Source: Candidatus Omnitrophota bacterium (lineage in GTDB: Bacteria > Omnitrophota > Gorgyraeia > Zapsychrales > JANLHA01). Taken from it: a DNA stretch of 32,000 bases. Within the stretch, counting starts at the first letter, position 1; every line of letters begins with the position of its first letter. The stretch lies in assembly GCA_963662715.1 (NCBI GenBank), contig OY759724.1:1080001-1112000 (forward strand), in the 5' to 3' direction. Shown here in pieces: positions 12,001 through 32,000 of the stretch. A program made the translations under genes and the position numbers. Below the pieces are notes generated by a model. It made no database searches. It had not been told where the DNA came from and saw nothing but the letters and a program-made list of their open reading frames with translations.

Positions 12001-15000
12001 TGGTAATGAGGATACGGGAAAGATCCGCACCTTTAGAAAAATCACGCTGCACAACAGGGTGCTCCTCCACGGTTCTCCTCGGGACAAGGATCTGAACGCC
12101 GAGCTTGGCATGGAAATCGTCATTGGCCGACTCAAACAGGTAATAATGAGATCCAAAAATTTCCCTGGAGACCAGGTCCGAAAGAACGGTCATCGTTCCT
12201 CCGATGCCCTGATAGCCTTTGGAATCAGGATAGAACAATCCGGCATTGCGGTAACGGACCTGCACCCAGAGGGCCGGGGCTATGGCAAATACATTATGAC
12301 CAACGCTCCATTGCCCCGAACGATGTTCTGCCTCGGCAGACGCAAGACTTTCCCGGCGGATTTCCGGATATGTTTTCATAAGGTCTTCATCGCTGCAAGA
12401 ACTCTCATCCAGGAATGTCACGAGACCCCGCTCTGTTTCGGTCGTGAAGGTCTCTTTTTCGTCCGTTACGATAATCCGGTCGGCTCTTCCCACAAACTGA
12501 TCCTGCTCCGCGTCATGGCTGATATCAAAAACATCAATAACAAACGCTCTATAAGGCTGAAAGCCTAATTTTTCCGGGCCAAATTTGGGCAAAGCCGCCG
12601 TCGTCCCTGTCCGAAGCCGGAACACCAATTTATGTTCCTCATCCACCCGGTACACAGCGTGGCCCCGTGTTAAGAATCCCTCTCCGTCAAATCTTTTCCT
12701 GCCCTGCCCCTTAATAGGATCTTCCGCGTTTCCAGTGACAGGCGAACTGGCGGGGTTCCGGATGAAATACACATCCGTTTCCAAGCGCCGAACATCCATG
12801 CGGGCTTGGCCGATCTTCGCCCCAGGCCGATAGGCTCCCGCCGATTTAAAGGTTTCCATAATAATGTCAACGTTATTTAAACCTCCCGAATGCAGCCAGC
12901 GGACAGGCTGCCAGACAAGGGCCTGTCCGCCCGGGTTCAAGACAAGAGGTAAGGCCCGGGCAAAACGTCTCAGGGTCCGGCCGTTCGCATCTCCGTCCCA
13001 GAGGGAATGACCGTGTTTCAGTCCATCGGATTCCGACACGTTCAGATCCAATTGCTGCATGTTCCACAAGACAAAATCAAACCTCCGATCCTGGAATCTT
13101 AAACGGCCGTCAGGAGTCATAATATTGTCTCCGATGACAGCCTCAAGCCCGAAACCGTTGTTATTCGCCACCGTGCGCACATTCGCCACTTCCATAGGGT
13201 TCAGGCCTATCGCATAAATGATCTCGCGTGTTTTGCGGGAAACAGCCCAGGCATCAATTCCGCTGCCCGGACCGACCACCAGCACCCGGCTCCACGGCTG
13301 AATGGGCAGCTGTTCAATCAAAGCGTGATAATACCGCATATCTGTTTCAAAAACCACTCTGGCCCCCGGAGTGTAAACAGTCGGTGCGACCGGAAGGAAT
13401 GTTCTATGGATAAACCGTTTCTCCGGACGGGACATCCACCGCCGGACGTACGTCCTTTCGAATTCCTGCCAGTTCTTCTTAAAGAGAAGGTCAGGCATTT
13501 CTTCGGACACCCGCCAACGGATATTTCCGGGGGTGGTTTCCATCAAAGCAAAGACATACGGGGAGCAGATAAATTTGGATGCATACCCCTGGCTGACGTC
13601 CATCGCTCCCTGGTAATTTTCCTCGGCATATTCTTCAATAATCTTCTGGTCATAACCGCGTCCGGCGATAGACTGATGCCAGGCAAAAAGTCCTTCAAGA
13701 TCATCAAGCCGCGGCACCGGGATATTGAAATGACTCAAGTTGAAATAATTCCATGATTTTAAAACAGACGCGAAATCTTGCCCTGTCCGGGATATTTGTC
13801 CTTTGACTTTCCGGGTCATAGCAGGAAAGACGGCAATCAGCTGATCATTGTTGTTAAAAATCAGATCAAAATCTGTTAAGTCCTCTCCGTTGACATGGCC
13901 CAAGTGATGCTGCAGGACATCTAACCCGACCGGCGCCCGGCTCGTATCTTTCCTTCGCGAGATACGGATTCTCTGGATTCTCGCTCCGAATTTTCGTTCG
14001 CTCCACATAATCTTATAAGCCCTAGCTCCCGGGGACGCGTTCAGGCCAAGGACGTTCATTATCTCTGCTGTAAGGGTTGTTTTGGCGTCCGCCTGGATGA
14101 CGGGGGAGCTGTTCCCGCTTAGAGAAGTGCGCGCGCTTGAACGCGGAGCTGTCTTTTCTATGATTTCCTCAACAAGGCTTTCCCAGATATAGATACGATC
14201 TTTATCGAGGACTCTGTTTAATCTTCTTTCATTGAGCCATTCCACAAACATAGAATCAAACACATGTTCCTCCAAATCCGTACGGCCCCGGTCGCCGGAC
14301 TGAAAAGCATCCATGACCCGGCTAATCTGCGCTATAGACCGTGTAACCGCCCGGGCACCATACCGGTGCATGATCCAGTCCAGCGTAGAACAATATCGGC
14401 CATGCACATCCTCATAACGCTCCACCCGAATCCTGTCCCGATAATTTTCGTCAAACTGCCCGAAGGTCGGATCAATCCCTAACACCGGAATAGTCTGATA
14501 ATAAAAGACAATCACATAATGTGTTTTGAATTTGTCCCGAAAAATCATCCTTTCCAGGACAAAAGACGTCTCTTGCCTGTCGCCGAACCGCACTTCTAAT
14601 ATTTGTGCAAGAACCTGCCCCAGGATATAACCGAATTCCCGGCAGAGATGATCCCCTTTGCTCCGCCATTCCGGCAGGCCTTGTTTTATAACCTGCCAGA
14701 TCTCTCTCTCATATAATCCGAGATAACCGTGTATCCCTGTCTTTAGACGGCTGAAATGCTCATTATCGACCAGATCCAAATCATAGGTGACCGGGCTGGA
14801 GGAGACAATTTCTTTCCCGGGAGATTGTCTCTCTGAAACTTTTTGGACCGGACTGGATGCTTCAGGATCATCATTCCTGTTTTCAAAAGATTCCATTTCT
14901 TTCAAAATACGCATATCATATTCATGAACCTTATGCATAAGCAGTTGATGAAGCTGCAAAAATTTCATGTCCATCCCCGGGAGAGGAATCACAGGCAAGA

Positions 15001-18000
15001 ACATCAAAGCCCCTAAAATCTGGCTGAATCGGGCCGGGCCTTTAATCCTGATCCGCTCGAAAAGATCATTTATTATTTCTTCTTCCGGGACGTCCGGGGT
15101 AAAAACAAAACAGGCGGCAAGATACAAACTTATCGCCTGGCTCATTCCGGGGGTTATCTCCAAGGAACTCGTCAGCCGCGACCTTAGGTTTTCCTGTATC
15201 CCGCTTGCCTTGATCTGTCCTCCGTTTATCAAAATCTTTTCGTAAGCCAATAACTGAATAAAAGTATAAAGGCTTCTTAAGAAAGCTTCCGATCTGGCCC
15301 GGCCCTCCGGCGTAGATGTCTCAACGGTCCAGTCGACCTGGAAGATCAAAGCATCAATGATAAAATCGATATTGTACTGCGGATGAATCATGTAAAGCTC
15401 TATTAAGGCTTTAAGGTCGCCGCGCCTTAACTGCTCCCCGATAATCCTTGGGGCGATCAGGGGTTCCAGTTCAGAAAAGGCTTCGCCGATATCCCATCTC
15501 AACCGATTCAGCTTGGGGATCGCCTTTGATTCAAGCATTAAAGCTTCTATGATGTCTCTGATCCTGTTGATGCCTTTTTTAACATCCTCCATGATGTCAG
15601 ACAGCTTTTCGTTTCCTAGTATCTCCTGAACAGCCTGCTTGGAAATCCCATTGCTCAGCATCTCTCCCGGTAAGTTCCGTTCGGATCTATAGAGCTCAAA
15701 CAGACCGTCCAGGGCATTATAAACAGACCAGAATATAACAAAGGCGTTCACATGTTCAGGCAATCTCTCTTCCGGCCATTGATACTGGCTGATAACCGAT
15801 GTGCGGAGGAACGCTTCCAAAAGCATCGACCGGTCTCCGGCATATTCCATGGCTTGTTGCGGACGCACCCGATACAAGGAATAATCAATGACCCAGCCTC
15901 TTTGGGAGGCTTTGGATCCGGTAATCGTTGCCCCGGCATAAGGATCGACAAAACGGTAAGGATTAAATTTCAACTTCTCCGCTTTCCCTTGCCCGAGGGC
16001 CCATGTCGTCAGTTCACAGCACGAGTTGATTGTATTCATAAGTTTTCTCGCCGTATCAACGGCCGGGTGAATAAGAATCAGGGTCGCGTTTAAGTTCATG
16101 CCGGCTCCGAGGATGATGCGCGCGGCATTCTTATTGGTCGCGGCCCCTCCCCGCATTTTCTTATCCATATCTTTTAGCACGTCATCGTCATAAGATTCAT
16201 GCCCCATCAGCACCATGCCCATACGTAAATCTCTATAAAGAATTTCCGCCAACTCTGGATGACGGTCAATGTTATCCGACCGCATTAATGCGAAAGTAAC
16301 GATTCCGGATTCCTGGAACTCCCCGTTCTCCCGGGCGAGAGCGGCCAGTTCCCTGTTCCTTTCCGGCCGAAGGTTGAAGTTATCGTCATTAAAGAATATG
16401 GCGCCTAAACGCGGAGCAAAATTCCTTATGATATTCAGCAACACCCTCATACCGTCTTCCGCCGGCAAGAGTGAAATCTTCGGTTTAATGCCCAAGACCC
16501 CCAAGGCTTGCGTCTCTTCCGCCGTAAGGTTCCGATAAGCATCCGGAAGCTGGTTGGTCGATGAACAGAAGTCACAGCCCATCGGGCATTCTGTCTCAAA
16601 ATAAACCCTCACGGTTCTGACGAATTTGTCATGGCCGGTGGCTTCCAAATGCTCCAATCCGTAATAATTTTCAATATACTGCCAATATTCTTCGTAAGGG
16701 ACATTGATCGAATCATGCATCAAGGTGACAAGTCGTAAATCATCCAGCTGATAGTAAATGACGCCCCTGGCTTCCTGCACGGCCCCGGATTCACTCCGGG
16801 TAAAGACGCCTCTTATCCGGGCAAAATCACGAATACGATTTTCTGACCGCCGGAGAGCCAGCGCCATTTCAAGCATAGGATACTCGCCCCATCCCGAGAT
16901 GACGGCGTCAACGGGCGCCTCCCGGATCAGCTTCTGACGGTTGAATTGCGCGCCCTGTCCTCCGGCGATAATAACCGTATCAGGCGACAGATTCTTAATC
17001 TTGAGCAACTGTTTAAGATCTTGCGGCAACGTTTGATCAAGCATACTGAACCCGATCATATCGTAATGGTTCTCCGTGACTATCTGCTCCAGATCATGGC
17101 GGCCTTGCAGTATTCTTAAACTGGCATCATAGACGTCGACTTCAAAACCAAAAACTTTGAGGAATGAAGCGATACGATACAGTCCGAAAGGCGGCGCCAG
17201 GAACTGTCCGGGCCGTAACTGCGGATTCGTCGGCCCGACCAAAAGAATTCTCGGCAACCCGGACAACGGAAGGCTATCATTAAAACATAAGCCTTTACCG
17301 GACGCCAGCCGGTCAAGGCGCCCGATTATAACCGCTTTACTTATGTTCAGGAAAGATAGCCCGCCCAGGACAGGATGCGCCACCAGACGTTTAATATGGT
17401 CTTTCGTCGGATCACCAAGACTTCGCGCCTCTTCTGTAAGCTGTAAGACATGTCTCTCTTCTTTCTGATCAACAAACGGCTGGTCAACGCTGAGCAGTTT
17501 AATATAGAGATACCGGGCGGGAGTTGACAAATAATTAAAACGGCTTTTCAGAGTTATTTCATCCAGCGCTCTAAACAGCTGCGCTTTTTCGTCACGGGTC
17601 ATACGCGCAAGATAAAGGTCAATCTCATCCCGCTGCAGCACGGATCCGGTGCCGGACCTTAATGTCCCCGTGGCATCTAAAGATATCGCGCCCGATCTGA
17701 CTCTGTCATTGACACGCTTTACGAATTCCGGAGATTCTGCCGGGGAAACGGCAATGTCCTGATACAGGGCTTTTACCTCCTCGGTCAAAGCGGCCCGGGA
17801 AGAATTCTTGTTTAAATATGCCGGTTCGAAAACAATGAGCCTCAATTCAAATATCTCGATGGCCGCGGCAACCTCTTTCCCTAAGAACCTGGAGCCGGCG
17901 GCAGGTCTGCGGGCAAAATACAGCCCTTCCGACGTCAACAATAAATTATAGCTCATATCATGCGCATGAGCTTCCTGAATAGCCTGAGACAGCCATCGTG

Positions 18001-21000
18001 ACGTTTCGGAAGCGTGTCCCTGTATTTTCAGATTCTCCGACGGCCATGCCGGGACATGAGAGATCCTCAGGCCTGTTCCCTGGTATAGCGTATTCTGACG
18101 TTGCCCTGCCATCTGGACGGCCTTTTTCTGCCTGCCATAATACCCCTGAAAATGCAGGTGTCTCTGGGAGTTCCCGGCATTATCAGCATTAAAATAAATA
18201 TTGAAATGCGGAAGTCGCTGCTGGATTTCGAGAATATCTTCCATATCCTCCCTCGTTATTTCCTGGAAGCGATGGATCAGTCTGCCGGCATGATCCAGAG
18301 GCACAATAACAATATGGAACTGTTCATAAGCGATCCTGTTGGTCCATATTTCCCACTGCCGTCCGCTGTTCAGCCGCATCGTAACAAGTTTTTGTCTGTC
18401 CCTGACGGCAGAATCACATAACGGGCACTTTACCTGCCGGGCCTGTTTTTCCCGTTCCGTTTTCTTCGTTTCTTTCGTTCGCTCCTCGTGATAACGCAAA
18501 GCAAACCTCAGCCCTCCGGCCTTAAGTTTTCTCTGCTGGAATTCCGAAGGCATAACTTCGATCAAGCCCCTGGATCTTCTCTCCTCCCACGCCCGGAGAA
18601 GGGCTCTCTCTTCTTCATTCATGATCAGATTCGCATAATAATACCCGAGGACATACGCTATCCGGTTCATCACATTCTTAAGGAATCTCCCGGCAGTCCT
18701 TTTACGAACCGGGCTGCTGACCGACGGCGCCCGGGCCGTCCTGCTGCTGTCCATCATCACCGGGCTGTTGGCAACAGAATCCCGGGTCCTGGCTTCCGGC
18801 TGAATCATGTCCGTGGAGTAGGCAGAAGCCCCCGCCGAGCCGGCAGAACTTTCTTCCTGGCTCTGTGGCTGTGCCGGTGATTTATATCCCCGATCAGCAA
18901 AATATTGCACAAAAACGGCCTCCCCGGCTTTGGCAAGAACATCAAGGAATGTGACAAAGCGGTCAGTTTGATCTTCATAAGTGAGGAGCTGATCAATAGG
19001 AAAGATATGAATATAAAGCACAAATTTCCCGCGTTCTTTTCTTAGCCGCATCCAGGAATCTTCTGTCCTGCTAAAATCGGATGTCACCTTCACAGAAAAG
19101 CTCTCAACCGGAAGCTTTGCGATACGGACTGTTATCTGTTCATATAATTTTTGCAACGCGTCTGTCTGAGACGGGGATAAAGGTCCGTTATCCCTGGCTT
19201 TCCAGACAGGCTGGCCGCCTGTAAAATCCAGTTCCCCGTATAAAGGATTGTCCCGGTATTTCTGTTCATAGATTCTTTTGGTCTCGTTAAAAGGCTTGAA
19301 CATAAACAAACGGTCGTCTTCCTTCGCTGTTTCCGGGGCCTCTTTGCTGACCTCATTTTTGATAATTTCAAAATGGAGGGCACCAAAACCAACAACGATC
19401 GGCACTTGAGGCTCCTGCGCCTGGACCGCCAAAACAGACCGCGCCATGGCGACACTTCTTGCGTCATTGATTTCGTCAAGCCTCGACAAAGTTATTCCGT
19501 TGATGTTATACATAAGTTTCCGGGCCGCTTCTCTTAACTCAGGGGAATCCAGTCCGACAATCTCGATATTCCGGTGGGACATATCATTGTCCATATCGAA
19601 ATAGATGTAATTCACCGGCAGATAGAATAAGAGAAACACTTCTTTTGCTGTTGCCGCAGGTCTCCGGACATTCTTTCTCTTCATAATACGTAAAATGGAA
19701 TTGTACCGCTCTTTGGCCAGTATGGTGGACCTGACCCATTCTGTAGTATCAAATTCATTCCCGTAAATCACTTTCGGATATTGTGCGGATAAGGCCTTAA
19801 CCTGCTCAACAATCTGTTTGTAACGGTTAATGACAGGACGGTAAGAAGCCAAAAGCCTGTTAACTCTTGCCTGGTATACTTCATCAGAAACATTGGCATT
19901 CAGCAGCTGCTTCATCATAATCTGGGTGAACCATAAATCAGTATGTTCATAGCCCCTTAAATAAACCGTTCCGATCCGGGCGTCAGGGTTAACATCCATT
20001 GCCTCTCTTAACTCAACAACAGCCTTTTCAACAGACCTGAGATATTGAACTTCATCATGATGTTGCTTGATGCTTTGAACAAAGGAAGCACAGCCCGACA
20101 AGAAAACGAGCTGCGGAAGGAGGATAAAAAAGATTAAAATCATCCGGAATATTCCGGGGGCCCGGGCGCCGTTGATACGGAACATTTTGGCCATACGCTT
20201 AATTTTTCGGACGAACCAGGTTTCTCTTTTAGAGGCCTCCGGCGGCCGGATAGGAGATCGGCGATCTGGGCGTACGGAATGAACTCCGGCCCGCCAGTGA
20301 CCGGCAGACTCATCCTGCCATATCCCCGCATCATCTGGATGGGTCTGCGGAGCAGAAGGATTGACCGGGGAGCTTGCCTGATTGGAGTCATCAGCTTTGT
20401 GGTTACGTTGTATTTCGGCCAAGGCCTTTTCCAGGGTCTCTTCAATAGCCGGCGGGTCATAAGAAATCACCCTCTTGAGTTTTTCAACCGAGAAAACCCT
20501 TCCTGTTCCGACGTCAGGCTGTGTCATGCCTTGTTCTTCCCGGGACAGAAGGTTGGCCTTCCGGCCTAGACGTGATTCCAGGAAAGAAAGCAGTTCCTGC
20601 AAAGAATATTTCGTTCCGGTCCCGACATTAAAGACCTCGGACAAATCCAGGTTTTGCTCCTGGGCCCAGAGCACAAGCCGGACCATGGCCTCCGCGGCAT
20701 CATCAACATAAATAAAATTGTAAGTGTCCGACGGGTTGGAAACAGTGATCGGCAGGCCCCGCAAGAGATTGACCGTAAACTTGCTGAAAACATCCAAAGG
20801 ATAAACTTCATGATGATGTGAGAAAAATTTGGGAATCGTGTTCGATAACCGGGCAATAATATACGGGCCGCCATATCTCTGGACAATCTTTTCCCCCCAG
20901 TATTTGCTTAAATCATAGGAACTCTCCGCCGGCTCAGCAGCCACCGTCTCGTTGATATAAACGCCGGGCTGTCTTCCATAAACACGCACGCTTGAGACAT

Positions 21001-24000
21001 AAAGAACGAGCGGCTGCTTTTGCCGTTCTTCCCGATATCCTTCCAGAGCACGAAGCAGGCTGTAAAGACCCAGCATGTTGACCTCCAAACTATCGAGTTT
21101 CTTTTCACGGGTTTTAACAATATCGGAAAGCCAGATAATGGCGTCCGGCTCCGAATCAAAGACCGCGTCCCTCACCTGCTGATCGTTTCTGACGTCAAGT
21201 TTGACAACTTTCGTTTTGAGGCCTTCTTGCGTCCCGTTAAAACCGGAGATTCCCGATAAACCTGTGACGATGATCTCCCGGACCTGCGGCATCAGTTCGC
21301 TGATTTTTCTATACAACGATCTTCCGATAAAACCGGTTCCCCCGATCAGCAGGACTTTTTTGACCGGGTGAACTTTTGACGGTGCCGGTTCCGTTATTTT
21401 TTCACGCTCTCCTAATAACGGGGCCTCGGTCAAAAATTCCAAAAATTTTCTCGCAAGCTGCGTTTGAACCTCATAACCGCAGCGGGCATAAAGTTCAATC
21501 ATCCTGCCCGTTCCCGCCGCCAAAGCCTGGCGGCCTTTCAGCGTCCGCATCGCAGCCGGGCTCATCATCTGACCTATTCTCTGAGGAAACTGCGCTGTTG
21601 ACACGACGTCTTTCATTGAAGCCTGCAGGGACTCTTTATCCTCCTGATACCATGTCCATAAGAATTCCATGAACTCATTGATACGAAACGCCCAGGGGGA
21701 ACAAACCTGGCAATGCCGATCAATTCGCGGATAAGTTTTAAGGAAACTCTGCCAGAGATTTCTTCCTATGACATCAGGATCAACGCCTTGCACAAAATTA
21801 TATAAACTTCCCCCGCCGGAGTACCCGCGATGATCGCACGGGTACATTCGCCCGTTGGGGGCAATAACGCCCGTAAACAGCATGGCCCAGCATTTCTTGG
21901 CTTGGCTCACAAACGGCTTTTGTTCGTGACGGCCGATCCTTTCCATATCATCTGTTCCATGCATGGCAACAACGGAATACTTGTGGTTCGAAAAGCGTTG
22001 AGAAACATCAAACAAGGCTTCCAGGTCACGGAAATGAGAGTTGAGAACTTCCGCGGTCATTAACCCGGTTATATCGAATTTAAACCGCAAAGAATCAACT
22101 CCCAGCTCCTGCATATCGGAGGCCATAGTCAGGATTTCATGAAAATTCTTCCCGGAAATGACAAAGCCCACGTTGATCATGGTGGAGAGCTGCTGCAACC
22201 TTTTCAGGCTGACGAGATCCGCCATGTCGGCCACTATGCCCTGATAATCTAATTTCTGGTTTCTTTTAAGCTTGCGGAAGGTTTCTTCGGAAGCGGCATC
22301 AAGGCTGACATGGACATAATCCAATAAATGCAACACGTCCTTGATTCTGTGCAGTCCCAGCCCGTTCGAGAAAACACCTTTTCTTATAGAAGACGGCAGG
22401 TTCCGAATAAGGGCAGGGATCCTGCGGCCGAAGCTGCCCTCCAGGGGCTCGCCGAACAATCCTGATAATTTGACCAATTTGAGTGCACCGTGATAATGCA
22501 ACTCCTGCACCACGGAAGTATAAATATCAAAAAGCCGGTCACTGATAGAATGATATTCTTTCTGGGTCTGTCTGATTTCCGGTAAAGACAATATCCGCTT
22601 TCCGATACAATGTTCACACCCCATCGAGCAATAAGGGCTCTGGATCTCTAACTCCGTCAATACGTGAGCATATTCGCCTCTTTCCAACGCTTCGAATACC
22701 TGAATGATGGACTCATGCTGTTCAAGCAGGAAATCAAACTCATAGGTAAAAGGAATGCTTCCTTTGCTGAGGTAATCGTAAAGCCGCCGTTCAAATTTCT
22801 TTCTGGCCGCTATTCTTCCTAAATGATTTGACTCGTCTATCGGGGATGAGGCCGGCCCCCTATGATCCTCTATAGATTCTTGATCCTCTGCGTGCTGCCT
22901 TACGGAACTGCTTACGGCCTGAGCGAGCTTCCGGACATCTCTGTCGGATGAAAAATCCCGGGCAAATCTTCTGAATCTCTCTATGCTGCCCTCGGCATGG
23001 ACAAGCTGCCCGGGATAATCAAAAATATTCATCGGAGCATAAGGATGCCTGAAGACAAACCGATAATTCATTTCTTCCAAGAACCGCAAACGCAGTATTT
23101 CTATAATGGCTCGTATCTCTTCCAGGCTGAGTTTATTCCGGACGGTCTCGTTATAGGACCGAACCATGACTTCCAGTTTGTCCCGCCCGTACGGAAGCGG
23201 AGCGGCGATATCATCCCGTCCCAATATTAGATTATTAAACTCGAGCACGCGGATATCCGTCACAGCCATGGCGAAATCTATTATCGCAATAACATGTCCA
23301 TAAACGTTGAAGATGAAATTCCCGACATGCAGGTCATTATGAACCGGAGATTCCGGGAGTCCTTCGGCAGAATAATTGCGGCTGAAAAGCTCGGTCTGCT
23401 TCATGATGAAAGGCTTATACGTAAAGAATAGTTTCTGTCCTGCTTTACTGACCGGGGAATCCCTCTCTATGCCGTGGAAAGCTCTTAAAGATTTCTCCAC
23501 TTCACTAAAAATCTGTTTTCGTGATTTATAGCGCCGTACGCCTTCCGGCTTAAATCCGAACAATACATTATTTATGTGAGCGGCGCTTCTGGCCGTGGCC
23601 TGAAAATCTTCTAAACGGGCATCCTCAAGACGGATCTTTTTCCCGTCTCCCATAAATTCTTCCAGGATATAACGCGCCCCGTCACATTCAACGATATAGT
23701 TCAAGGCCGTATCCTCTGCCGTTCCGGAGACCCGGTAAAGTTCCGGCACGGGCAGCCCGGCACGGTGCAATTCTTTCATAACAGAAACAATAAACCGGGC
23801 CCTTGTCACAGGATCCTGTATCCTTCTTAAGACCTTTTCTTCCTCTTGCGTGATAATCAATACCGGAGGATGCGTGCTTCCGATGCCTCCTGTCAACACC
23901 TTGCTCCCGGCTTTCCCGATTCCGTAATACTTCCTCACAAGCGCTACGGCTTGATCCTGCCCCTGTTCCACCGGCGAACTCGTTATCGGGCTTGGGCCGG

Positions 24001-27000
24001 ATGTCGTTTCATCAGACAGGCTGACCGCCTGGGCGAAGATGTTTTGCTCCTGCTCGCTTAATTCAAAGCTCTTGCCCGGGAGCCACTGGGACAAAAATCG
24101 TGCTTTCCTTAAATGAAGCTGCGCCTGCAAAATGTGCTCGGTAAGACTGCGGAACAAATTGCTTTCAGCCGGCTCATCCTGCTCCAACCCCTCCGCATAT
24201 CGGCTCACAAAAGCGGCCTGGTAAAAAATGGTCCAATACAGGTCCGGATGTCTTTGAACAACATGATACCGGGTGTTCCGGCGGAACTCATTAAAGGTCT
24301 GGCGGAAGGCCTCGGCCCGGCTCATCCCCTCTCCGGTTAAATGACTCGTGACAAAACGCTGGCGGTAATCCTCCATGAAGCGGTTTAATGTTATGGCAAC
24401 GATAACCTTATTTTTCAGGAATTCAAACGCCTCTTGAATTTTATTATGGTCTTGTTGAGTCTTATAAAGTTTGGCCAGCAACGGCTGAACATGTTTCCGG
24501 AAGACAAGAGCTAACACTCCATAATCCGGTTCGGACGGATCAAGATACGCCGGATGCTCAGGATTCAGGAAATCCTGCTCCAGAATCATGCGCGGGAGTT
24601 TATACTGTCTGTACCGCAATGGTTGCAATGCTTTAAAAACCCGGGTCTTAAGGGCATTCTGCCGCCGGCTCACTTCCTGGCGTAACCGGTAAACTCTTGC
24701 ATGATTAAGACCCCGGACAATAGCCCGGCTTTCTTGAATCCTGAGTTCAAGGATCTGTTTTGTGACTTCAAATAATCCCCGGAGTTTAATAAACGCATGA
24801 GGACCTTCATCTAACAGTTGTAAGCTGTGCGTAAGAATGATACGGGCCAGTAATTTTTCTTCTACGAGAACATTTTGCAGTCTGTTTAACTGTTCTAAAA
24901 TAAGCGCCCGGACCCTGTTTGTGTCTTCATGAATGATATCCATCAGACGGTCGAGCAGATGCCTCAGTTCATAAATCCATCTTATTTCATCCAGTTCAGA
25001 ATCAACCATATGATCAACAGCCCGGAAAGCGTCCCATAAACTAGCATAAGTCAAATCACCATAAGTTTTCACGGCTGAAGCATTCCATTGACCGGCTTTT
25101 TCGAACCGCTGTCCGCGCAAATGATATAAGCCGTCTTGCTCTCTTCTTAACCGTTGTGGCGGGGTATGGCGTTCCTGCCGTAAGCGTCGGCTAAGATGGG
25201 TTTCTTTAATTTTATGCAGGGCTATTAATGTAGATGTCATAATCATATTAACGGCCGGCTCGTTATAAACAGCAAGCAAGGCCTGGACGTGATCAAACCG
25301 CTGCAATAAACCTTTCGGCAGGTTCATATCTGCAAAGAATCGAAGCTTGAGCTGAATGTCTTCAGCCACGTCAGCGAGTTCTGCCCGGAAGGGAGTTTCG
25401 TCTGATGCGGCTTTACGCTTTATAGTCAAAATGTAAATACGGAAATTCCAATCAGCGACTTGCAGCGTGACGTCCCCTAAAGCGGCTCGATACTCGAGAC
25501 GGAATTGCTTAAATTGTCTTGAAGCGGCTTTAGAAGCAGATGGGGCTTTCTGATTAAGGTCAATATGAGATATTGTGCGGTCAATAATATAAGAAGGATA
25601 CGCGAGTTTCTTTAATATGTTTCTTAAAATGATCCGGCGTGACCGGGTCCATTGCTCTGATCGCGAAACGGCCCGCTGATAAATTTGAGCTCTCAGGGCC
25701 TGAACATCTTTGGCGGGGGAGAGATCAAGGTCATTTACAAACAGTTCAACTTGTTCTTTTATCTTTTCCGGCGGGCCGTGAATCTTCCCGGACTCCTGCA
25801 GATATTCATAAACAGAGATACGATAGAGAATGTCTTCCAGATTCTTAAACCCTTGCGTAATGTACGGCTCTTCTTTATACCGGGGATGACTGTAACGCTG
25901 CCCGGCCCACCTCATGGATTGCGCGCTGATCGCATGTACAGGGCTGGGCGCCGCTATCGGGGACGCGGACTTCGGCGCGGCTTTGCCCGATTCTTTGGAA
26001 ACCGGCGAGCTGGCGGTATCGTCTGAATTTTCTGACCGTACTTCGTCCCACAATTGTTTAAGCAAATCCCTGTCCGATCTTGATATTTGCTTATAATGTG
26101 CACCCTCTTGATGGAATATATCGTTTAGCGCAGCGGCAAAATCAGCAGCAGGGTTTTTCCGTAGATAATAGCGAATAACATTTTTGAAAGCTTTGCTTCG
26201 TGCCAGCGAACCTAGCTCTCTCTCATACATCTCTCCCTTCTTATTTAATAATAAGGCGTCCAGCTGCCCTTGTTCCCATAGACGACGATACGTGAGTTCA
26301 TAAACTAAACTTAGCTCGATCATTAACTCTGTCTGATCTCTATTAATCACAATTTCATATGTTTTGTCTGCCTTAATCACAGAAAGGGCAAGAGTACGGT
26401 CGGCGCCAAAGGTAGCTCTTGGGAATCCGGCAAAGAAACTATGAGGCAGGGCTATAATCTTTATCTGACCTGCTTTTTCTTCGCTAAAGCCAAAGAAACT
26501 TCTGACTTGTGGGGCGATTTCATTTAAGTTGTGACGAGCTGCTCCTTGGATATGTGTATTAATATAGCTTTTCACCTGGCGCGCTGCAGAATGCTCAATA
26601 TGCGCGCACCCGCCACAGAAGATGAATACTGCAGCAACGATAATAACAAATGGCGGGCTGTGAATGAACCGGGCAATATACCTCCCCAAGCCCGCCATTG
26701 CGCCGGCTGTCCTGTCGATTCTAATCCGCTCGGGTGACTGAACGCCCTTACATGAGGCGGAAATGTTAAAGTTCTTGTTCACCGGAGAACTGGATAAATC
26801 TTTATCCAAGGATGTCCTTGATGAACCGGCCTGCCTCCCTTTATTCAAGGACATGTTAAACCGCTCTTCAAGCATTCTATTCAGTATGGGGTCTTCCAGC
26901 ATGACTCTTATTTTAGCCGCATCGCTGTACACATTGTTTAATCCGGGTTCAACATTTTGACTGAAAGGAGCGGTCATTTTCAGAAGATCTTCAACCGGAG

Positions 27001-30000
27001 CTTCCCTGTTAAGCACAAAAGAAACAAACGGGTTTCTATTTACGGCATCAACTATCGACGTTAAATCCTGATGCTGTATGTTCGCCAAATCAAAGAACTC
27101 GAAAAAGTGACTGTCTATATTAACGGCACCGCCGGGATAAATATCCAAATGATCCCTTGCCGTACTGAGCCTGCTCCCCCTCTCATGGATATCCTCATCA
27201 TACTCCTGCGCATAAAGTTCCGCGCTCAGGTGCCTTGCTTCACCGATAAAACTCAGTAGCCCCCGGCGCACATGCGGCAACCTTAATCCTTTACTTGATA
27301 ATATGTCCTTAAGCTGAATATAGGAAGGATCTTGCCGGACAAAATAATCAAAAACGCTTAACGCGAGCGTAATTTCAAAATGATAGGTATTTTTAACGGC
27401 TTCAATAATGTTGACGATATTACCGATGGGGATGACCGGCTTTCCTGTAGGCCCTTTTTGGCTGAAGACAAACTGATTGACGCTTAGCTGGATAATCAGA
27501 TCTTTATCCCCTGAGCACAGCAAAAGATCCCTTAAAACATTTCTGGTTATCTGCGGTGTTTTTGCCCAGAAACCATTTGTTGCCAGGGTTACGACATTCG
27601 CGTCCACGTGCCTAAGCAACATACGGACCAAATCAGGTTTAAGGAAGGGTTCTCCGCCGGTAATGCCCAAATGACTTATCCCGCCGAAAGTGTTGATCCT
27701 TTCGATAAGCAACATCGCTTCCTCCCTGCTCATCGAAGGCAGCCGTTTAACCCAGTTCGGCCAATAGCAATGCGCACACCGCAAGAGGCACCGAAGAGTG
27801 ACATATACATCCAACGATTTTATGACCGGTGAGCCGGCACGTTTCACTGCCTTTGCAGGGCCGGCCATATATTCTATTGGGCTTGAAGAAGAAGTCTTGG
27901 TTTCTTTTTCTCTGGATTCTTCTCTGGAAGCCAATCTATCACCTGCAATGATTGAAAGTGCCCCTGCTAACAGCGGGCCGGTCACGCCTAAAAATGTTTC
28001 TGCTTTATACAAGCCGTTTGCTTCCCGGCTGTGCATCCTTAATAATTCCCAGACTGTCTGGTCAATGTCCTTGCCGTACAATTGTTCTTCTTTGGCAAGC
28101 CAAACTTCTACGGCCCCTCCCCTGGTCTTTACCACACAAATAGCGCCTATCAGATGAGAATACGCGGCCAAAGGAGTCTTAACTTCTATTATTTCTCCAA
28201 CTTTGAATCTTCGCTTTGCTCTCTCGTTTATTATTTCTCCGACATACGGTCTGGCCATTAAAACAAATATCTTCTCTTTACCAAGAAATGTCTGAGCCGT
28301 ATGTTCAGGCCACATATTGAAAGCCATAATCTCACGGCACACCGTATCAGGATAGGCATTCCAGTTAACAAAAAGTCTCGGGATAATTTTACTTGCCCAT
28401 GCGCCCGGTTTTGTTGCCCCTTTCTGTTTCTTCAATTCAACTTTTCCTTCTGCAATAGCATTTACAGCGCTGACCAAAAGCCCGGCTGACAGAGGCGCAA
28501 GTTTCTCCGTAAGCGTGAAACAGGATTCCGTCAGACTTACTTCTACACCTTTCAATCTTGCAACAACCTCTCCGGTATCCCATCCTTCTTGTATCCTGTG
28601 GATAGTTATGCCTGTCTGTCTTAACCCGAATAAAACAGCGGCATGAACGGGTAAACCACCCCGCAATTGCGGCAACATCGAAGCATGAACATTAATAAAA
28701 TCGAATTTAAATGTTTGGGTAATTTTTCCTGTAATCTTATCGGGCCAAACACAAGTTACGCCAAGGTCCGCGTTTACTGTTTGTAAATATTCAATTAACT
28801 CATCGCTCTTTTCATCAACAAATACTTCGGTCCCATTTTCTTTTGCAATCTTAATGATTTCTTCACTTTCTCTCTTTGTGATTACGCTTACAACTTTAAA
28901 ATTTGCTCCTCTATCCGCAAGCAAAGACTGAAGCGATAAACGGCCAAACAGTGTCCCTTCGCTGAAAAAGACAATATTGAGCCTGCCGTAAGGTTTGGCG
29001 TAACCGGGGTATTCTTTTACCAATCCGGGAACCGGGTTACGAACTGCGGTCAAAAATCTTCCGAAATCAAACTTCTTCATCGGGCTGGAGGCCTTGCCCT
29101 CCGCATTCCTGATAGCGTCCTCAGAAACCGGAGAACTGAGACTATCCTGAGGCAAATTATTTCTTTTTGCCCATTGTTTTATTAAACTTTTCTCTGTATG
29201 TATGGGCAAATTAATAATAAAGACCGTCCCAAAATTTTTCCTGCTTTCTATTCTGAGTTTACCCTCCAGGAAATTCACGACATTCTGAATCTTCGGCAGA
29301 CCGAATCCGAACCCGGATATATTGAACACGCCGGGTTCCGAACTGGTAAACCCAACCAAAAATGCCTTGTCCAGGGCCTCCGCCGACATCCCTATCCCAT
29401 TATCGATTAGCCTCATCACAATTCCGTCTTCTTTTACATAAAGAACACATTCTATACGAAGCGGGATACCGGGCCTTCGGAACCAGATAGCATTCTTAAC
29501 AACTTCATTGCAAACCAGGTCAAACATTCCTGGCTGAGTAAAGAGTTCGGGGACTTCTGTTTTCTTCTCAACTTGGTTAAATGATACGGGCAGCCCTTCG
29601 GACCATAACGCGATGTACTCTGCAATGACCGCGTTCATTTTTTCTTCAAGAGAAACATTGTGTCGCAATATTCCGTAAGGCCTGCCGTTCATAAGCTCAT
29701 TCGCGTGCTCTAACAGCCAGATAATAAAATAGTGAATATCGAACATCTCTTTTAAGATAACCTGCACCTCGTTGCTTGTTCTGCTTTCTCTGCTAAAAGT
29801 CTCCGGGTTAGATATCAACATCCAGAAATCACTTAAACGCTTGTTTTCATCTTCTCTGGAGAAACCGGTGGAATGTCTGGGGAATCGTCTTTTGAAAATC
29901 TTTCCGTATTTGGCAAATGGGTAACTGAACTGTTCGCATAAACCGTTCCCGCTATGCTTATCCAGCTCCTTTAACAAGACATTAAGCCTTGTTACATTGT

Positions 30001-32000
30001 CAAAACATACGCCGCGCACCTTAGCGGAAAATTCTTTTCTGAAAGATTTCCCTTCCTCTTCCATAGTCCTGTTAAAGGCACCGGCGACCGCCGCAAATGT
30101 ACTCATGTTAGACTCCAGAGGAATGCTCCAGCTGCCGATTTCAAGCCGCCCAAACCTTCTAAATTTTTGATTGCTTTGTTTTGCGCCTCCCTTTACTCTG
30201 GGTTCCCCCACCGGCGAACTGGTATTATCTGTTTTACTTAACCTTGCCGCTTCGGGTTGGATAATGCCTAAGGCCACCAGTTTTTCATAAAGGGCCTTTT
30301 CCTGAATGCCCAAAGCTTCGGCAAGCTGCCCTCTCGACAGAACTTGATGGTTCGCCTCAATGAACCGCAATTCCTCCTTCTTCCTCTGAATCTCAGCCGT
30401 GGTTTTTCCAAGATCAACAGCCAGTTGGGCTTCATCCTCTTCCCTTCGCCTTGAGAGTTCTGCCTCTTCCTGATTCTGCCATTTATGCAGTTCGATATCC
30501 TCGTTAATCAATCTTCTCATATATCTGCGGTCGGCTTTATGTTGTCCGCTGTCCTCCCATCCGTATGCGGCATAGATGCCCTCAAGACCTTTCTCAAAAT
30601 AAATATCAGCGATCACTCGAAAGCCCTCCAGCATATTCTCGATGATCGCCACCGGCTTCTTAAAATGAACAGCCAGAGCCTTTGCATCCTGGGCTCCATT
30701 GGCCACAAACAGACGCCACAACAGTTTTCTTTCTTCCCGGCTCCACCGGGTATATTCAAACCAGGTCAGCCTCATCTTGATTGCACTCGTGTTCCATTCG
30801 AGATCACCGGCCAAAGTGGCATTATTCAATTCCGCATAATGGTTTCTGATATAAGCTAATTTTTCGAGCTGCTGCTTGGTTGTTTCAACATCCTTCCTGA
30901 TCTGAGCAGCTAACTTTTCTGTCTGCTCGGGCGCGGGCATCTCGCCATACGGCAGACTCTCTTTAATCCACTGAATCAATATTTTCTCCTTGGCAGGGTC
31001 CCATTTTCGCCTTCCCTGAGGACCGGCTTTCCTGACCTGCGGGGCAGGGGCGGCAGCACTATGAGGGAGTTCTCCTTCCTGGACTCCGGCGGTATCTTCT
31101 GGTTCTGATGGCGATAAAGCTTCTGCTTTCGACGGGATATCCGGACAAATTTCTGTAGGAACAATATTATTGAGGACAAGACCGGTGATGTCCAGATAAT
31201 CTTCCCCGTAAAATTCATTGATAGAAGACATCCGGGAAAAGAGAACATATCCGTGCCAATTCACGGACACGACCTGCTGCCGGGACTGATTGAAAATATA
31301 AAACGTCCCTTTCGAGCCGTACCGGTAAAAATATTTATTTGCGGCCTGTTGCCCTTCGGCCTCTCTTTCGTTGATGGTTTCTTTGATCTTCTTTTCGTGT
31401 GCACGTGGATCACGCTGCCTATCAATCTTAAAGTCCCTTTCTCCCCGCAAAACGGCCACGATATCCCGGCTTAACCCCGCGTTAATCTTTCCGGCCCCGA
31501 TCTTATCCGCCGCGCCAAGAACATGAGCGGCAAAACCTTCCTCCGAAAATTCCAGAATACGCATCACGTCACCCAGAGGCCCAACGACAACAACTAAAAA
31601 TCTTTGGCCCTTTTCCAAATAAAAATGTTTATAAAACCGCGTCGCACCGCTTCTGTCCTGATAACGGCTCCCCCGGAAAACTTTCCCTTCCCTTAAAACA
31701 TGGGCAATATTGGAAATCACTTCTTCTTCATTAACAATCCTTCTTGCCTGAATATCTGCCCCGAAATACGTATCCCCGGTTCTGGCATGATTATTCACAA
31801 GCATTTCGCCAACCCGCTGCCATCCAAAAGGCCGTTTCCCGCGGTAAGAGGGGTACCCCTGGAATAAGACACAGACGTCAGGGACAACAACTTCCCTTCC
31901 TCTGTGTCGGAAGATCAGCTCCAAGCCTTGCCTTTCCACAACCGCAAGCGGCAGGAACCATCCGCTCTGAATCTCCCGGGTTAAACCGACCGCCTTTATC
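1..32000 (-). CDS. Internal fragment of one giant multidomain ORF (at least 10,666 codons; neither start nor stop codon lies in the window)
   Basis: The minus-strand frame with codon first bases at 31999, 31996 ... 4 was translated by hand end to end. It gives protein-like sequence with no in-frame TAA/TAG/TGA. All recognised motifs share this one frame: three CxxxCxxC, GDSGAP, GGTGFIG/YxxxK, Walker A, HLHFQ, VLVVGPGSG and 20 SSPV. I checked each anchor coordinate as equal to 1 mod 3. The supplied ORF track has no entry in this frame but has entries in the other five, as expected if the ORF is open at both window edges. Confidence 0.9.
2..330 (-). other. TPR-like helical repeats (C-terminal-most part of the ORF in this window)
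   Basis: Translation: ...LLRAVDKDPLLGLAHCALALLYSNLAGQETDPDTREKLWTRSQIYIDRAVALYPQRMDVLLSAAKIYEMLAREQ... This is a helix-hairpin pattern directly after a transglutaminase-like core, a SirB1/YchA-type arrangement. Confidence 0.4.
470..700 (-). other. Transglutaminase-like (papain-fold) Cys-His-Asp core
   Basis: Translation: MANCLVFSVIYHEIARESGFEARVV...ETWHVIVIVGLDEDRILTLDLMN. The Cys codon is at 662-664, His at 557-559 and Asp at 509-511, in the canonical order and spacing. Confidence 0.45.
1185..1440 (-). other. GNAT-family N-acetyltransferase domain
   Basis: Translation: DILIMARGGKVVGQLTYYVHTGDKQGKLFYIVIARDAHGRGSRYGTNLLRTFVRML. An acetyl-CoA binding motif A-like R-G-x-G-x-x-G-x-x-L lies at 1283-1330. 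Confidence 0.6.
2645..3205 (-). other. Trypsin-fold (PA clan, S1/Trypsin_2-like) serine protease domain with complete catalytic triad
   Basis: His lies in FTSKHGLY (codon 3104-3106), Asp in LNDVAVIRL (2936-2938) and Ser in MYLGDSGAPLLD (2708-2710). They occur in the canonical H-D-S order and spacing, followed by GQVVGLMS. Confidence 0.8.
3515..4570 (-). other. TPR-like / all-helical repeat region
   Basis: About 350 aa of amphipathic helix pairs, for example EAIAEIAEFLTELGEYEEAIKTIRIL, GHYEQAEEVLKQGYNYFLQI, SRAFLEKAKRQLSYLY and GKEHLAKAKEMVDP. Confidence 0.55.
4728..4975 (-). other. CBM48/AMPK-beta-type (E-set) carbohydrate-binding-like beta-sandwich
   Basis: Translation: VTFVFKPQGGRHEEIQSVFLGGSFNRWLNDEDNEEFKMVEQDGLWQLSVVIQEHQIDYKFLVVFADGSQSWISYKFDPYNP. 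It matches the V-F-x-W...V-x-L-x-G-S-F-N-x-W...G-x-W...Y-K-F pattern. Confidence 0.55.
6200..6590 (-). other. P-loop NTPase / small-molecule kinase-like domain
   Basis: Walker A motif LVVITGRVSTGKTMFAEMI at 6542-6571, followed by a hydrophobic strand VVIIDGTE (Walker B-like). Confidence 0.65.
7300..7530 (-). other. ACT-like domain (C-terminal part of an RSH-type module)
   Basis: Translation: HYSINISFSAARPGRLLAVLRAMQILKFVVKRISVKTSGFSKQVYRIALDVRESPGHQTTPQDIRKIL. This is a beta-alpha-beta-beta-alpha-beta pattern, positioned as in RelA/SpoT C-termini. Confidence 0.4.
8095..8290 (-). other. TGS domain
   Basis: Translation: DYVPLSLPEGAIALDVAAHRKIDRLYKGIYCGTFKVRIKVDEI...LDEIKDGDVLLL. It matches the TGS pattern (P-x-G-[AS]-T/I-x-x-D-x-A ... 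G-x-x-V ... L-x-D-G-D). Confidence 0.5.
8460..8860 (-). other. RelA/SpoT-like (RSH) nucleotide pyrophosphokinase domain, partly degenerate
   Basis: VRFKSTYSYSRKE gives an exact R-x-K-x-x-x-S-x-x-x-K (8807-8842). CDIWGGMFVV corresponds to D-x-x-G-x-R with Arg replaced by Met (Asp codon 8765-8767). RYIEIIIISEENY stands in place of EIQIRT (8525-8548). GTAKHSVYSMRK stands in place of G-x-AAHW-x-YK. Confidence 0.5.
10800..11200 (-). other. Possible degenerate GHKL-type ATPase-like module
   Basis: Translation: VLAHTVENMMDLY...DILLRLISNGASF...FFGGRGEGNAIM...GLVVEVIIAK. It loosely follows the N-box, G1, G2 and final-strand order. The call is weak. Confidence 0.25.
12890..13345 (-). other. Class I SAM-dependent methyltransferase domain
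   Basis: Motif I RVLVVGPGSGIDAW at 13253-13285, an acidic/loop motif II region EIIYAIGLN, and a motif IV-like FDFVLWNMQ. Confidence 0.65.
14460..14655 (-). other. Small Cys-His-Asp (transglutaminase/papain-like) core within a 226-aa SSPV-delimited module
   Basis: Translation: GDHLCREFGYILGQVLAQIL...KTHYVIVFYYQTIPVLGIDPTFGQF. The Cys codon is at 14642-14644, His at 14519-14521 and Asp at 14471-14473. Confidence 0.35.
15990..17255 (-). other. Class B (cobalamin-binding domain plus radical SAM) enzyme module
   Basis: The N-terminal part is B12-binding-like: RILLVGPTNP...PPFGLYRIASFLKVFGFEVDVYDA...DMIGFSML...VIIAGGQGAQF (about 16830-17255). It is followed by VRVYFETECPMGCDFCSS, with CxxxCxxC at 16565-16588. 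Confidence 0.75.
17890..18430 (-). other. HIT-superfamily (GalT / Ap4A-phosphorylase / GDP-hexose-phosphorylase branch) nucleotidyltransferase-like domain
   Basis: KCPLCD at 18413-18427, then FHIVIVPLDH, then NAGNSQRHLHFQGYY with the HxHxQ signature at 18143-18160. Confidence 0.55.
19360..19990 (-). other. Possible Tiki/TraB/ChaN-like domain (tentative)
   Basis: A C-terminal PIVVGFGALHFEIIKNE (19367-19402) resembles the VVGxxHL motif of this superfamily. An upstream GTVYLRGYEH could be the N-terminal motif. The call is weak. Confidence 0.2.
20084..20194 (-). other. Internal lipoprotein-signal-peptide-like segment (Met, basic n-region, hydrophobic core, lipobox L-S-G-C)
   Basis: Translation: MAKMFRINGARAPGIFRMILIFFILLPQLVFLSGCAS. 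The in-frame ATG is at 20194-20192 and the Cys codon at 20092-20090. The reading frame is open upstream, so this is not a demonstrable gene start. Confidence 0.55.
20400..21360 (-). other. Extended-SDR NAD(P)-dependent epimerase/dehydratase domain
   Basis: Rossmann motif KVLLIGGTGFIGRS (GGTGFIG at 21323-21343). Catalytic S...YDLSK has Tyr at 20915-20917 and Lys at 20903-20905. Also IYVDDAAEAM. Confidence 0.85.
21670..22670 (-). other. Radical SAM domain 2 with Cys-rich C-terminal extension (SPASM/twitch-like)
   Basis: ELEIQSPYCSMGCEHCIG has CxxxCxxC at 22607-22630. Also LSGLFGEPL. Downstream cysteines lie in KKCWAMLF...GRMYPCDH...HCQVCSPW. Confidence 0.75.
23040..23950 (-). other. APH / choline-kinase / homoserine-kinase-II-type phosphotransferase domain
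   Basis: Catalytic loop VHNDLHVGNFIF at 23315-23341, followed by VIAIIDFAMA (the Mg-binding D-F equivalent). The N-lobe-like part is YILEEFMGDG. Confidence 0.7.
26606..26698 (-). other. Internal signal-peptide/TM-like hydrophobic segment with Cys-rich end
   Basis: Translation: MAGLGRYIARFIHSPPFVIIVAAVFIFCGGCAH. The in-frame ATG is at 26698-26696. It lies 27 codons after the SSPV at 26780-26791. Confidence 0.45.
27008..27814 (-). other. Radical SAM domain 1
   Basis: LDVYVTLRCLLRCAHCYW has CxxxCxxC at 27767-27790. HLGITGGEPFL is a GGE SAM-binding motif. Confidence 0.8.
28030..28984 (-). other. Formyltransferase (Fmt/ArnA-N-like; N- and C-terminal subdomains)
   Basis: NIVFFSEGTLFGRLSLQSL, then FDFINVHASMLPQLRGGLPVHAAVLFG (about 28670-28693), then TGITIHRIQEGWDTGEVV, and a following beta-barrel-like C-terminal subdomain. 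Confidence 0.8.
29200..29550 (-). other. GHKL / histidine-kinase-type ATPase domain (HATPase_c)
   Basis: N-box DLVCNEVVKNAI (about 29490-29512), G1 LIDNGIGMS (about 29389-29406), G2 SGFGFGLPKI, and GTVFIINLP. Confidence 0.75.
30362..31009 (-). other. Three tandem SANT/Myb-like tryptophan repeats followed by an HTH-like segment
   Basis: The three repeats are RKWDPAKEKILIQWIKE..., TRWSREERKLLWRLFVANGAQDAKALAVHFKKPVAIIENML and HKWQNQEEAELSRRREEDEAQLAVDLGKTTAEIQRKKEEL. They are followed by SRGQLAEALGIQEKALYEKL. Confidence 0.4.

Follow-up and report, generated by a model that had tools for sequence, protein, structure and literature searches.

It has been stated explicitly that the fate of bacterial giant open reading frames (ORFs), whether they remain single or are cut, is still undecided and that their cleavage points, if any, have yet to be found (bioRxiv 10.1101/2023.11.21.568195). 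A short hydrophobic segment found in the genome of a Candidatus Omnitrophota bacterium raises this question at one locus. The window, by which we mean the whole stretch of DNA analysed here (32,000 nt; assembly GCA_963662715.1, contig OY759724.1, positions 1,080,001 to 1,112,000), was scanned in all six reading frames. One frame of the minus strand has 0 stops over 10,666 codons and is open at both window ends. It is the only stop-free frame, and the other five have 314-678 stops each. This giant multi-enzyme ORF (2..31999), which runs past both ends of the window, consists of about 21 modules, and all the features described below lie on the same minus strand. The segment in question is encoded at 26606-26698, near the start of module 5, and stands shortly after a tetrapeptide, SSPV, that recurs along the ORF. 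Our analysis suggests that this segment may be a true Sec export signal like those of lipoproteins, to be used once the polyprotein is cut at linkers bearing SSP[V/I]. We give this reading a probability of about 0.4.

Anatomy of the module 5 segment and its companion

The minus-strand translation of 26606-26698 is MAGLGRYIARFIHSPPFVIIVAAVFIFCGGC (residues 1768-1798), and it is followed by Ala-His. The earlier note on this DNA described a Met, two Arg, a hydrophobic core and a Cys-containing end, beginning 27 codons past the SSPV at 26780-26791 (residues 1737-1740). All of these parts are present, and the distance is correct for Met1768. Between the SSPV and Met1768 there is a polar spacer of 27 residues, NKNFNISASCKGVQSPERIRIDRTAGA (26699..26779), which contains an AGGA at 26710-26713. 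The segment itself shows the three regions (n, h and c) that make up a signal peptide of the Sec type. The n-region, MAGLGRYIARFIHSPP (Met1768-Pro1783, 26651..26698), has two Arg, no acidic residue and a Pro-Pro helix cap, and the h-region, FVIIVAAVFIF (Phe1784-Phe1794, 26618..26650), consists of 11 uniformly hydrophobic residues. Taken together with the CGGC that follows, the h-region makes 15 residues with a mean Kyte-Doolittle (KD) value of 2.82, and the core is bracketed by Pro-Pro and Gly-Gly. The c-region, Cys1795-Gly-Gly-Cys1798-Ala-His (26600..26617), can be read either as a lipobox-like GG↓C or as a signal peptidase I site, G-C-A↓H. The putative mature part of module 5 (26012..26599, about residues 1801-1996) has no Cys and no recognisable family, and a further SSPV (26000..26011, residues 1997-2000) closes this small orphan module (residues 1741-2000).

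For the lipobox, a PS00013-type rule was applied: {DERK}(6)-[LIVMFWSTAG](2)-[LIVMFYSTAGCQ]-[AGS]-C. The segment fails this rule at position -3 only, where Cys1795 stands, and passes once Cys is allowed there. The charge and spacing that belong to the same type of rule are in place, with Arg at position 6 (within the first 7) and Cys1798 at position 31 (within 15-35). A direct reading also finds the small residues at -3 and -1 that are expected of a Sec/signal peptidase I site, in G-C-A↓H after a core of 11-15 residues. A Tat signal was excluded, as the n-region contains GRYIARF without an Arg-Arg pair. Like the bacterial lipoprotein (Sec/signal peptidase II) signals, the segment has a Met, a basic n-region, a short uncharged h-region, small-small-Cys and Ala at +2. 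Unlike them, it is internal, with 1,767 residues preceding Met1768 in the stop-free ORF, and it has Cys at -3. The N-terminal location that belongs to a lipoprotein signal would be reached only after proteolytic release or internal initiation. For these reasons, the segment is probably best described as like a lipoprotein or Sec signal peptide and not as a strict member of either class.

The ORF has a companion segment in module 9 (residues 3880-4431), MAKMFRINGARAPGIFRMILIFFILLPQLVFLSGC (Met3936-Cys3970, 20090..20194). Its lipobox, L-S-G-C, is canonical, and it passes the strict PS00013 rule, with the Cys 32-35 residues after a Met. Met3936 lies 56 residues past the SSPV before module 9 (20363..20374, residues 3876-3879), and the hydrophobic core begins 73 residues past the same junction. 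In module 5, the core begins 43 residues after its junction. The earlier note held that both segments are placed at the start of an SSPV-delimited module and not inside a domain, which agreed with our results, as both stand near a module start and outside any recognised domain. The two are also built alike: both begin with 'MA', and both hydrophobic cores end in [GS]-G-C-A.

A Kyte-Doolittle scan of the whole ORF with a 19-residue window (KD19) gave only two peaks above 2.0, at residues 3953-3971 (2.37) and 1783-1801 (2.31), so that the count of two hydrophobic segments in about 10.7k residues, which the earlier note had given, was confirmed. The third peak (1.81) is a buried strand inside the kinase core. 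In residue shuffles of the ORF, at least one window with KD19 >=2.3 appeared in 40% and at least two in 10%; hydrophobicity by itself is not beyond chance at this ORF length. The compound signal pattern, on the other hand, is non-random. Its elements are a Met and a net charge of +2 or more in the 20 residues before a 14-residue core, a mean KD of 2 or more in that core, and, after it, a relaxed PS00013 lipobox with [AGS]-C at its end. This pattern, which was defined post hoc with the data already seen, has exactly two matches in the ORF (Cys1798 and Cys3970), whereas the shuffles averaged 0.001 matches each and 0 of 3,000 contained two. Cys makes up 0.65% of the ORF residues, and the chance of finding [GAS]-C within 5 residues of both cores is about 4e-5. 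Hessa-scale values, taken as simple sums over 19 residues, were +1.55 kcal/mol for the module 5 segment and +0.2 for the companion. Together with cores of 11-15 residues, these sums suggest the length of a signal peptide rather than that of a membrane helix of about 20 residues.

Junction motif, embedded protease and proposed processing

The SSPV before module 5 is one of 24 junction tetrapeptides in the ORF (20 SSPV, 3 SSPI and 1 SSPM), and the expectation for SSPV is 0.13. Their positions include 30209-30220, 29126-29137, 26780-26791, 26000-26011, 23969-23980, 20363-20374 and 18707-18718, and the consensus is roughly [A/S/T]-S-S-P-[V/I]-x-[K/E/Q]. Many different combinations of synonymous codons spell the motif, so selection acts on the peptide rather than on the DNA. 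We rejected the idea that the junctions are marked by a repeated nucleotide sequence or by the scar of a recombination, as only the stretch coding for S-S-P-V-N recurs and its codons vary; no longer nucleotide repeat was found there. The 12 residues on either side of the junctions are 16% hydrophobic compared with 35% ORF-wide, and none of the 24 lies within a Pfam envelope (P about 0.017). These polar flanks, together with the position outside the Pfam envelopes, indicate that the junctions are exposed inter-domain linkers with a common recognition motif. The pattern would be the signature of a site recognised as peptide, and the junctions are candidate processing or recognition sites between modules. 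Four very short peptides have junction motifs at both ends, with 16 (29078-29125, residues 959-974), 19 (14789-14845, residues 5719-5737), 56 (6674-6841, residues 8387-8442) and 25 residues (1943-2017, residues 9995-10019), and in this they are like the spacer peptides of viral polyproteins.

The ORF also contains a candidate processing enzyme, a Trypsin_2 (chymotrypsin-fold) serine protease module (2663..3160, about residues 9614-9779). The match covers the full profile (E=1.1e-9, 39.6 bits vs a gathering cutoff of 27.6), and the triad His9632, Asp9688 and Ser9764 (GDSGAP) is intact and in canonical order. The Trypsin_2 module (about residues 9518-9994 as a whole) is itself bordered by SSPV junctions. 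Two features by which a polyprotein is recognised are found in this ORF: a short peptide motif recurs at the inter-domain junctions (24 SSP[V/I/M]), and a protease with intact catalytic residues is embedded in the chain. It is reported that E. coli DegP, an HtrA protease, has a strong P1 preference for Val, Ala, Thr or Ile (PMC3195437). By analogy with DegP, an aliphatic P1 is plausible for this fold, and cleavage at SSP[V/I]↓ would fit such a preference.

According to the reading that we prefer, the ORF would be translated as a single chain, and the polar linkers bearing [A/S/T]-S-S-P-[V/I] would be cut. The cutter would probably be the embedded chymotrypsin-fold protease, acting after the aliphatic residue. 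In the released module 5, the signal would come close to a free N-terminus and could lead to export through Sec. Two outcomes would then be conceivable for module 5: lipidation of Cys1798 with cleavage by signal peptidase II, or cleavage after Ala1799 by signal peptidase I. Module 9 would take the same route with its canonical lipobox, and the enzyme modules would remain cytoplasmic. We infer that cutting occurs, and likewise by which enzyme and at which bond, as well as the export and the lipidation. In its full form, this proposal describes a true cellular polyprotein, that is, a biosynthetic 'operon' whose product is a single chain over 10,000 residues long, in which a serine protease would cut about two dozen SSP[V/I] sites and internal lipoprotein signals would send two products to the envelope. 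We put this wider picture forward tentatively, as a possibility with the greater part of the probability still outside it.

Several points weigh against an export signal that is set free by cleavage. The cleavage at SSPV is itself purely inferred, which also counts in favour of an uncleaved anchor, an explanation that is weighed below. The lipobox of the module 5 segment reads as non-canonical, with Cys at -3 (F-C-G-G-C). After a cut at SSPV, 43 residues in module 5 and 73 residues in module 9 are left ahead of the core, more than is usual for a Sec signal. A strongly hydrophobic core is, as a rule, bound by the signal recognition particle (SRP) during translation, i.e., before a post-translational cut. 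There is also no comparative support: with module 5 as the query, HMMER run exhaustively over 1.84 billion representatives gave no homologue, a word-indexed search of 5.8 billion proteins gave no match, and nothing was found in genome, metagenome and viral contigs (back-translated scans) or in plasmids (tblastn). In single-sequence AlphaFold2 models, the pLDDT was 43.7 (module 5) and 39.4 (module 9), too low for judging burial, and a sequence search against the PDB gave no close solved relative of the protease module. Moreover, SSPV could serve a role other than cleavage, e.g., by offering a Ser-Pro target to a kinase or a prolyl isomerase. A parvulin-type isomerase is reported to be conserved beside Omnitrophota giant genes (bioRxiv 10.1101/2023.11.21.568195). 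In the literature, nothing relevant was found on SSPV as a cleavage motif or on internal lipoprotein signals in bacterial polyproteins.

Topology and alternative explanations

The flanking charges (N-side/C-side) are +2/+1 for the module 5 segment and +4/0 for the companion. The positive charge on the N-side indicates, by the positive-inside rule, that both segments are oriented N-in/C-out. Consecutive passes of one chain must alternate, and two N-in segments therefore cannot be such passes. About 2,150 residues separate them, and the enzymes encoded in between (20621..23863) are an APH/CotS-type kinase (residues 2713-2925), a radical-SAM enzyme with CX3CX2C (about 3121-3343) and a NAD epimerase/dehydratase (3549-3793). 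The cytoplasm offers the ATP, S-adenosylmethionine, reductant and NAD that such enzymes need. The earlier note predicted that this stretch could be on the opposite side of the membrane from its neighbours. With both segments N-in and with these enzymes between them, such an inverted topology is disfavoured; it is the least likely outcome and probably wrong. Since the two segments share one orientation and enclose cytoplasm-dependent enzymes, a single uncut chain cannot satisfy both signals, and this gives a topological argument for cutting. The anatomy of the predicted signals likewise argues against the chain remaining intact, and if module 5 were exported while still joined to the chain at residue 1997, folded cytoplasmic enzymes would be pulled into the translocon.

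It had also been proposed that the modules behave as, or derive from, separate exported proteins. One part of this proposal stood, as signal-like segments do occur at module starts and the modules are probably separate proteins. The word exported fits only 2 of the approximately 21 modules, and the others are cytoplasmic-type enzymes without a signal.

The same hydrophobic segments could be explained as uncleaved internal membrane anchors, in which case the giant protein would stay intact, as a multi-enzyme chain mostly in the cytoplasm and fastened to the inner membrane at these points. The 'TM-only' Omnitrophota giant proteins are at present viewed in this way; those of at least 10,000 residues have a mean of 22 predicted membrane helices amid enzyme domains, and the dominant class is read as membrane-anchored with the domains cytoplasmic (bioRxiv 10.64898/2026.06.07.730766). 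A KD of 2.3 over 19 residues in the module 5 segment is indeed at the level of a membrane helix. However, after an N-in/C-out pass the chain would have to cross back, the one remaining hydrophobic segment, 2,150 residues off, is likewise N-in, and the resulting topology would put the kinase, the radical-SAM enzyme and the NAD epimerase outside the cell. Cores of 11-15 residues that both end in [GS]-G-C-A would be superfluous for an anchor, and hydrophobic segments account for about 0.35% of residues compared with about 2% reported for Omnitrophota giants. We consider the anchor unlikely, though it deserves to be taken seriously. A different view is that the segments are evolutionary relics, i.e., that an ancestral operon contributed lipoprotein genes to the ORF by in-frame fusion and that their signals, including the former start Met, persist and no longer export. 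'MA' opens both segments, where a former initiator Met would be expected, the module boundaries are domain boundaries, and the lipobox of module 5 is degenerate at -3, as decay predicts. On the other hand, modules 5 and 9 cannot be told apart from the remainder of the ORF by their codon usage, which suggests that they are long-resident parts and that a fusion would not be recent. An unused segment able to engage SRP and Sec should harm a chain of more than 10,000 residues and should erode, and yet the two rare Cys and the canonical LSGC have been kept. Many modules, including most of those other than modules 5 and 9, lack a Met close to their first residues, which means that remnants of gene starts are not the rule. 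A relic therefore seems decidedly unlikely to us.

Two further explanations were weighed. The ATG of Met1768 heads the signal and the AGGA is found 11 nt upstream, so Met1768 might be the internal translation start of a separate product, with the AGGA as its ribosome-binding site. The AGGA noticed earlier is present where it was placed, and as evidence for a start site it fails: 26% of the 229 in-frame Met codons pair with the anti-Shine-Dalgarno sequence at least as well, and the companion Met3936 has essentially no such pairing. An internal ribosome-binding site was dropped for this reason, as the AGGA is at background level. Promoter-like sites are not enriched. The product from Met1768 would still exceed 8,900 residues and, with no stop downstream within the window, would need proteolysis anyway. 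We consider an internal start improbable. Separately, a promoter, terminator or RNA element at the segment locus was considered and rejected. The segment might finally be packed inside a soluble globular domain as its hydrophobic core, or be a run that arose by chance in so long a protein. This is in line with the 10% of shuffles that yield two KD19 >=2.3 windows and with the third-ranked KD peak, which is a buried kinase strand. The combination of charge, core and [AGS]-Cys is nevertheless about 1,000 times rarer by chance than observed, the run is uniformly hydrophobic and not amphipathic, and the segment is located in a polar region beside a linker at a module start. Burial or chance is accordingly given hardly any weight here, and the Sec-type signal used after cleavage remains the reading that we favour.

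Composition of the ORF and comparison with known systems

The ORF has at least 10,000 residues and is tiled by many distinct Pfam families, none of which is dominant. The Pfam and NCBIfam domains comprise a histidine-kinase-type ATPase (HATPase), an fmt/ArnA-like formyltransferase, three radical-SAM domains (one of them B12-binding), an APH/CotS-type kinase, an NAD (SDR) epimerase/dehydratase, DUF4922 and a methyltransferase, and there are also the Trypsin_2 protease, a GNAT-like region and a transglutaminase-like region. These enzyme domains are mutually unrelated. All NCBIfam matches in the ORF are far under the family cut-offs (fmt: 100 bits vs 201), and the modules are extremely divergent. 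No internal paralogy was detected among the ORF modules, including between the signal-bearing modules 5 and 9. No close relative was found for any module tried in the word-indexed protein searches and in six scans of public contig collections, and the other modules used as query in the genome, metagenome and viral contig scans gave nothing. Module 9 is as much an orphan as module 5, as its word-indexed protein search and its plasmid tblastn search were empty, and neither module had a credible match in Pfam, NCBIfam, PHROGs, PADLOC or the PDB sequences. The word-indexed protein search with module 8 was empty at a threshold of 1e-10, which is probably too strict. A recent foreign insertion of modules 5 and 9 was rejected, as their codon usage fits the rest of the ORF. 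The window contains no marker gene.

Some further observations concern individual modules. Module 3, the formyltransferase (27875-29077), has a GC3 of 0.39 compared with about 0.5 in most other modules, and its codon-usage distance is about 2.5 SD over the block null, which may reflect a different history. In module 8, the boundary between the radical-SAM and epimerase domains (about 21362-21373, residues 3543-3546) is without an SSPV and has 'VHPV' only. This 'VHPV' directly precedes a typical epimerase N-terminus, KKVLLIGGTGFIG, and may be a degenerate junction or belong to a true two-domain product. Weakly hydrophobic Gly/Ala-rich stretches were seen just upstream of junctions, namely, TFLGVTGPLLAGALSIIAG (residues 1335-1353, 27941-27997) and SILMAAPVAAAGFIPG (residues 10304-10319, 1043-1090), and the hydrophobicity of both is under the level of a membrane helix. 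The mature part of module 9 (18707-20089) contains the motifs GYEH ... DARSVAMARSVL ... VVGFGALHF. These motifs may be reminiscent of the GxxH / R..MA / GxxH signature of the TraB/GumN/ChaN/Tiki superfamily, whose members are often extracytoplasmic; hmmscan, the PDB search and AlphaFold gave this resemblance no support.

Among known systems, the nearest analogue of the arrangement is the capsid-prM region of Flaviviridae. There, a site cut by the viral protease on the cytosolic side is followed at a short distance by an internal signal peptide that is cut by a membrane signal peptidase on the far side. In broad terms, the parts come in the same order in both systems: a junction motif, a spacer, a signal and a cleavage site with small residues. 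In flavivirus polyproteins, however, stop-transfer helices return the chain to the cytosol, and none were seen in this ORF. Those polyproteins are also viral and eukaryotic in setting, with the endoplasmic reticulum (ER) and the signal peptidase complex, whereas a bacterial-style lipobox and a content of metabolic enzymes are found here. MARTX is a large modular bacterial toxin whose embedded cysteine protease is activated in the host cytosol, cuts linkers after Leu and frees effectors. The ORF is like MARTX in having unrelated functional modules, linkers and an embedded protease domain. It differs in its candidate serine protease, its SSP[V/I] motif, its biosynthetic-type enzymes and its two modules with export signals.

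The closest resemblance in content is with the 'multi-enzyme metabolic cluster' giants of Omnitrophota, which likewise have ORFs of more than 10,000 residues, many highly divergent enzyme domains and scattered hydrophobic segments. It is reported that the enzyme domains of Omnitrophota giants include HATPase, methyltransferase, GNAT, radical SAM, kinases and peptidases, that their sequences are mostly unique, that cleavage is suspected, and that implausible topologies were noted (bioRxiv 10.64898/2026.06.07.730766; 10.1101/2023.11.21.568195). In contrast to those giants, the density of hydrophobic segments in this ORF is about six-fold lower. The repeated junction motif is present in this ORF and is described in neither of the two reports (bioRxiv 10.64898/2026.06.07.730766; 10.1101/2023.11.21.568195). 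Internal signal-peptide calls were suppressed as chunking artefacts in one of them (bioRxiv 10.64898/2026.06.07.730766). Pipelines that drop such calls in giant proteins may lose real information.

The two signals that lie just past a junction motif bear on whether bacterial giant ORFs act whole or cut, and the interest of this locus is that it offers a testable case for the polyprotein processing of a bacterial giant gene. If the proposed processing is true, it would mean that a virus-like expression strategy is used in a cell, and SSP[V/I] would be the first concrete cleavage-site motif for bacterial giant genes.

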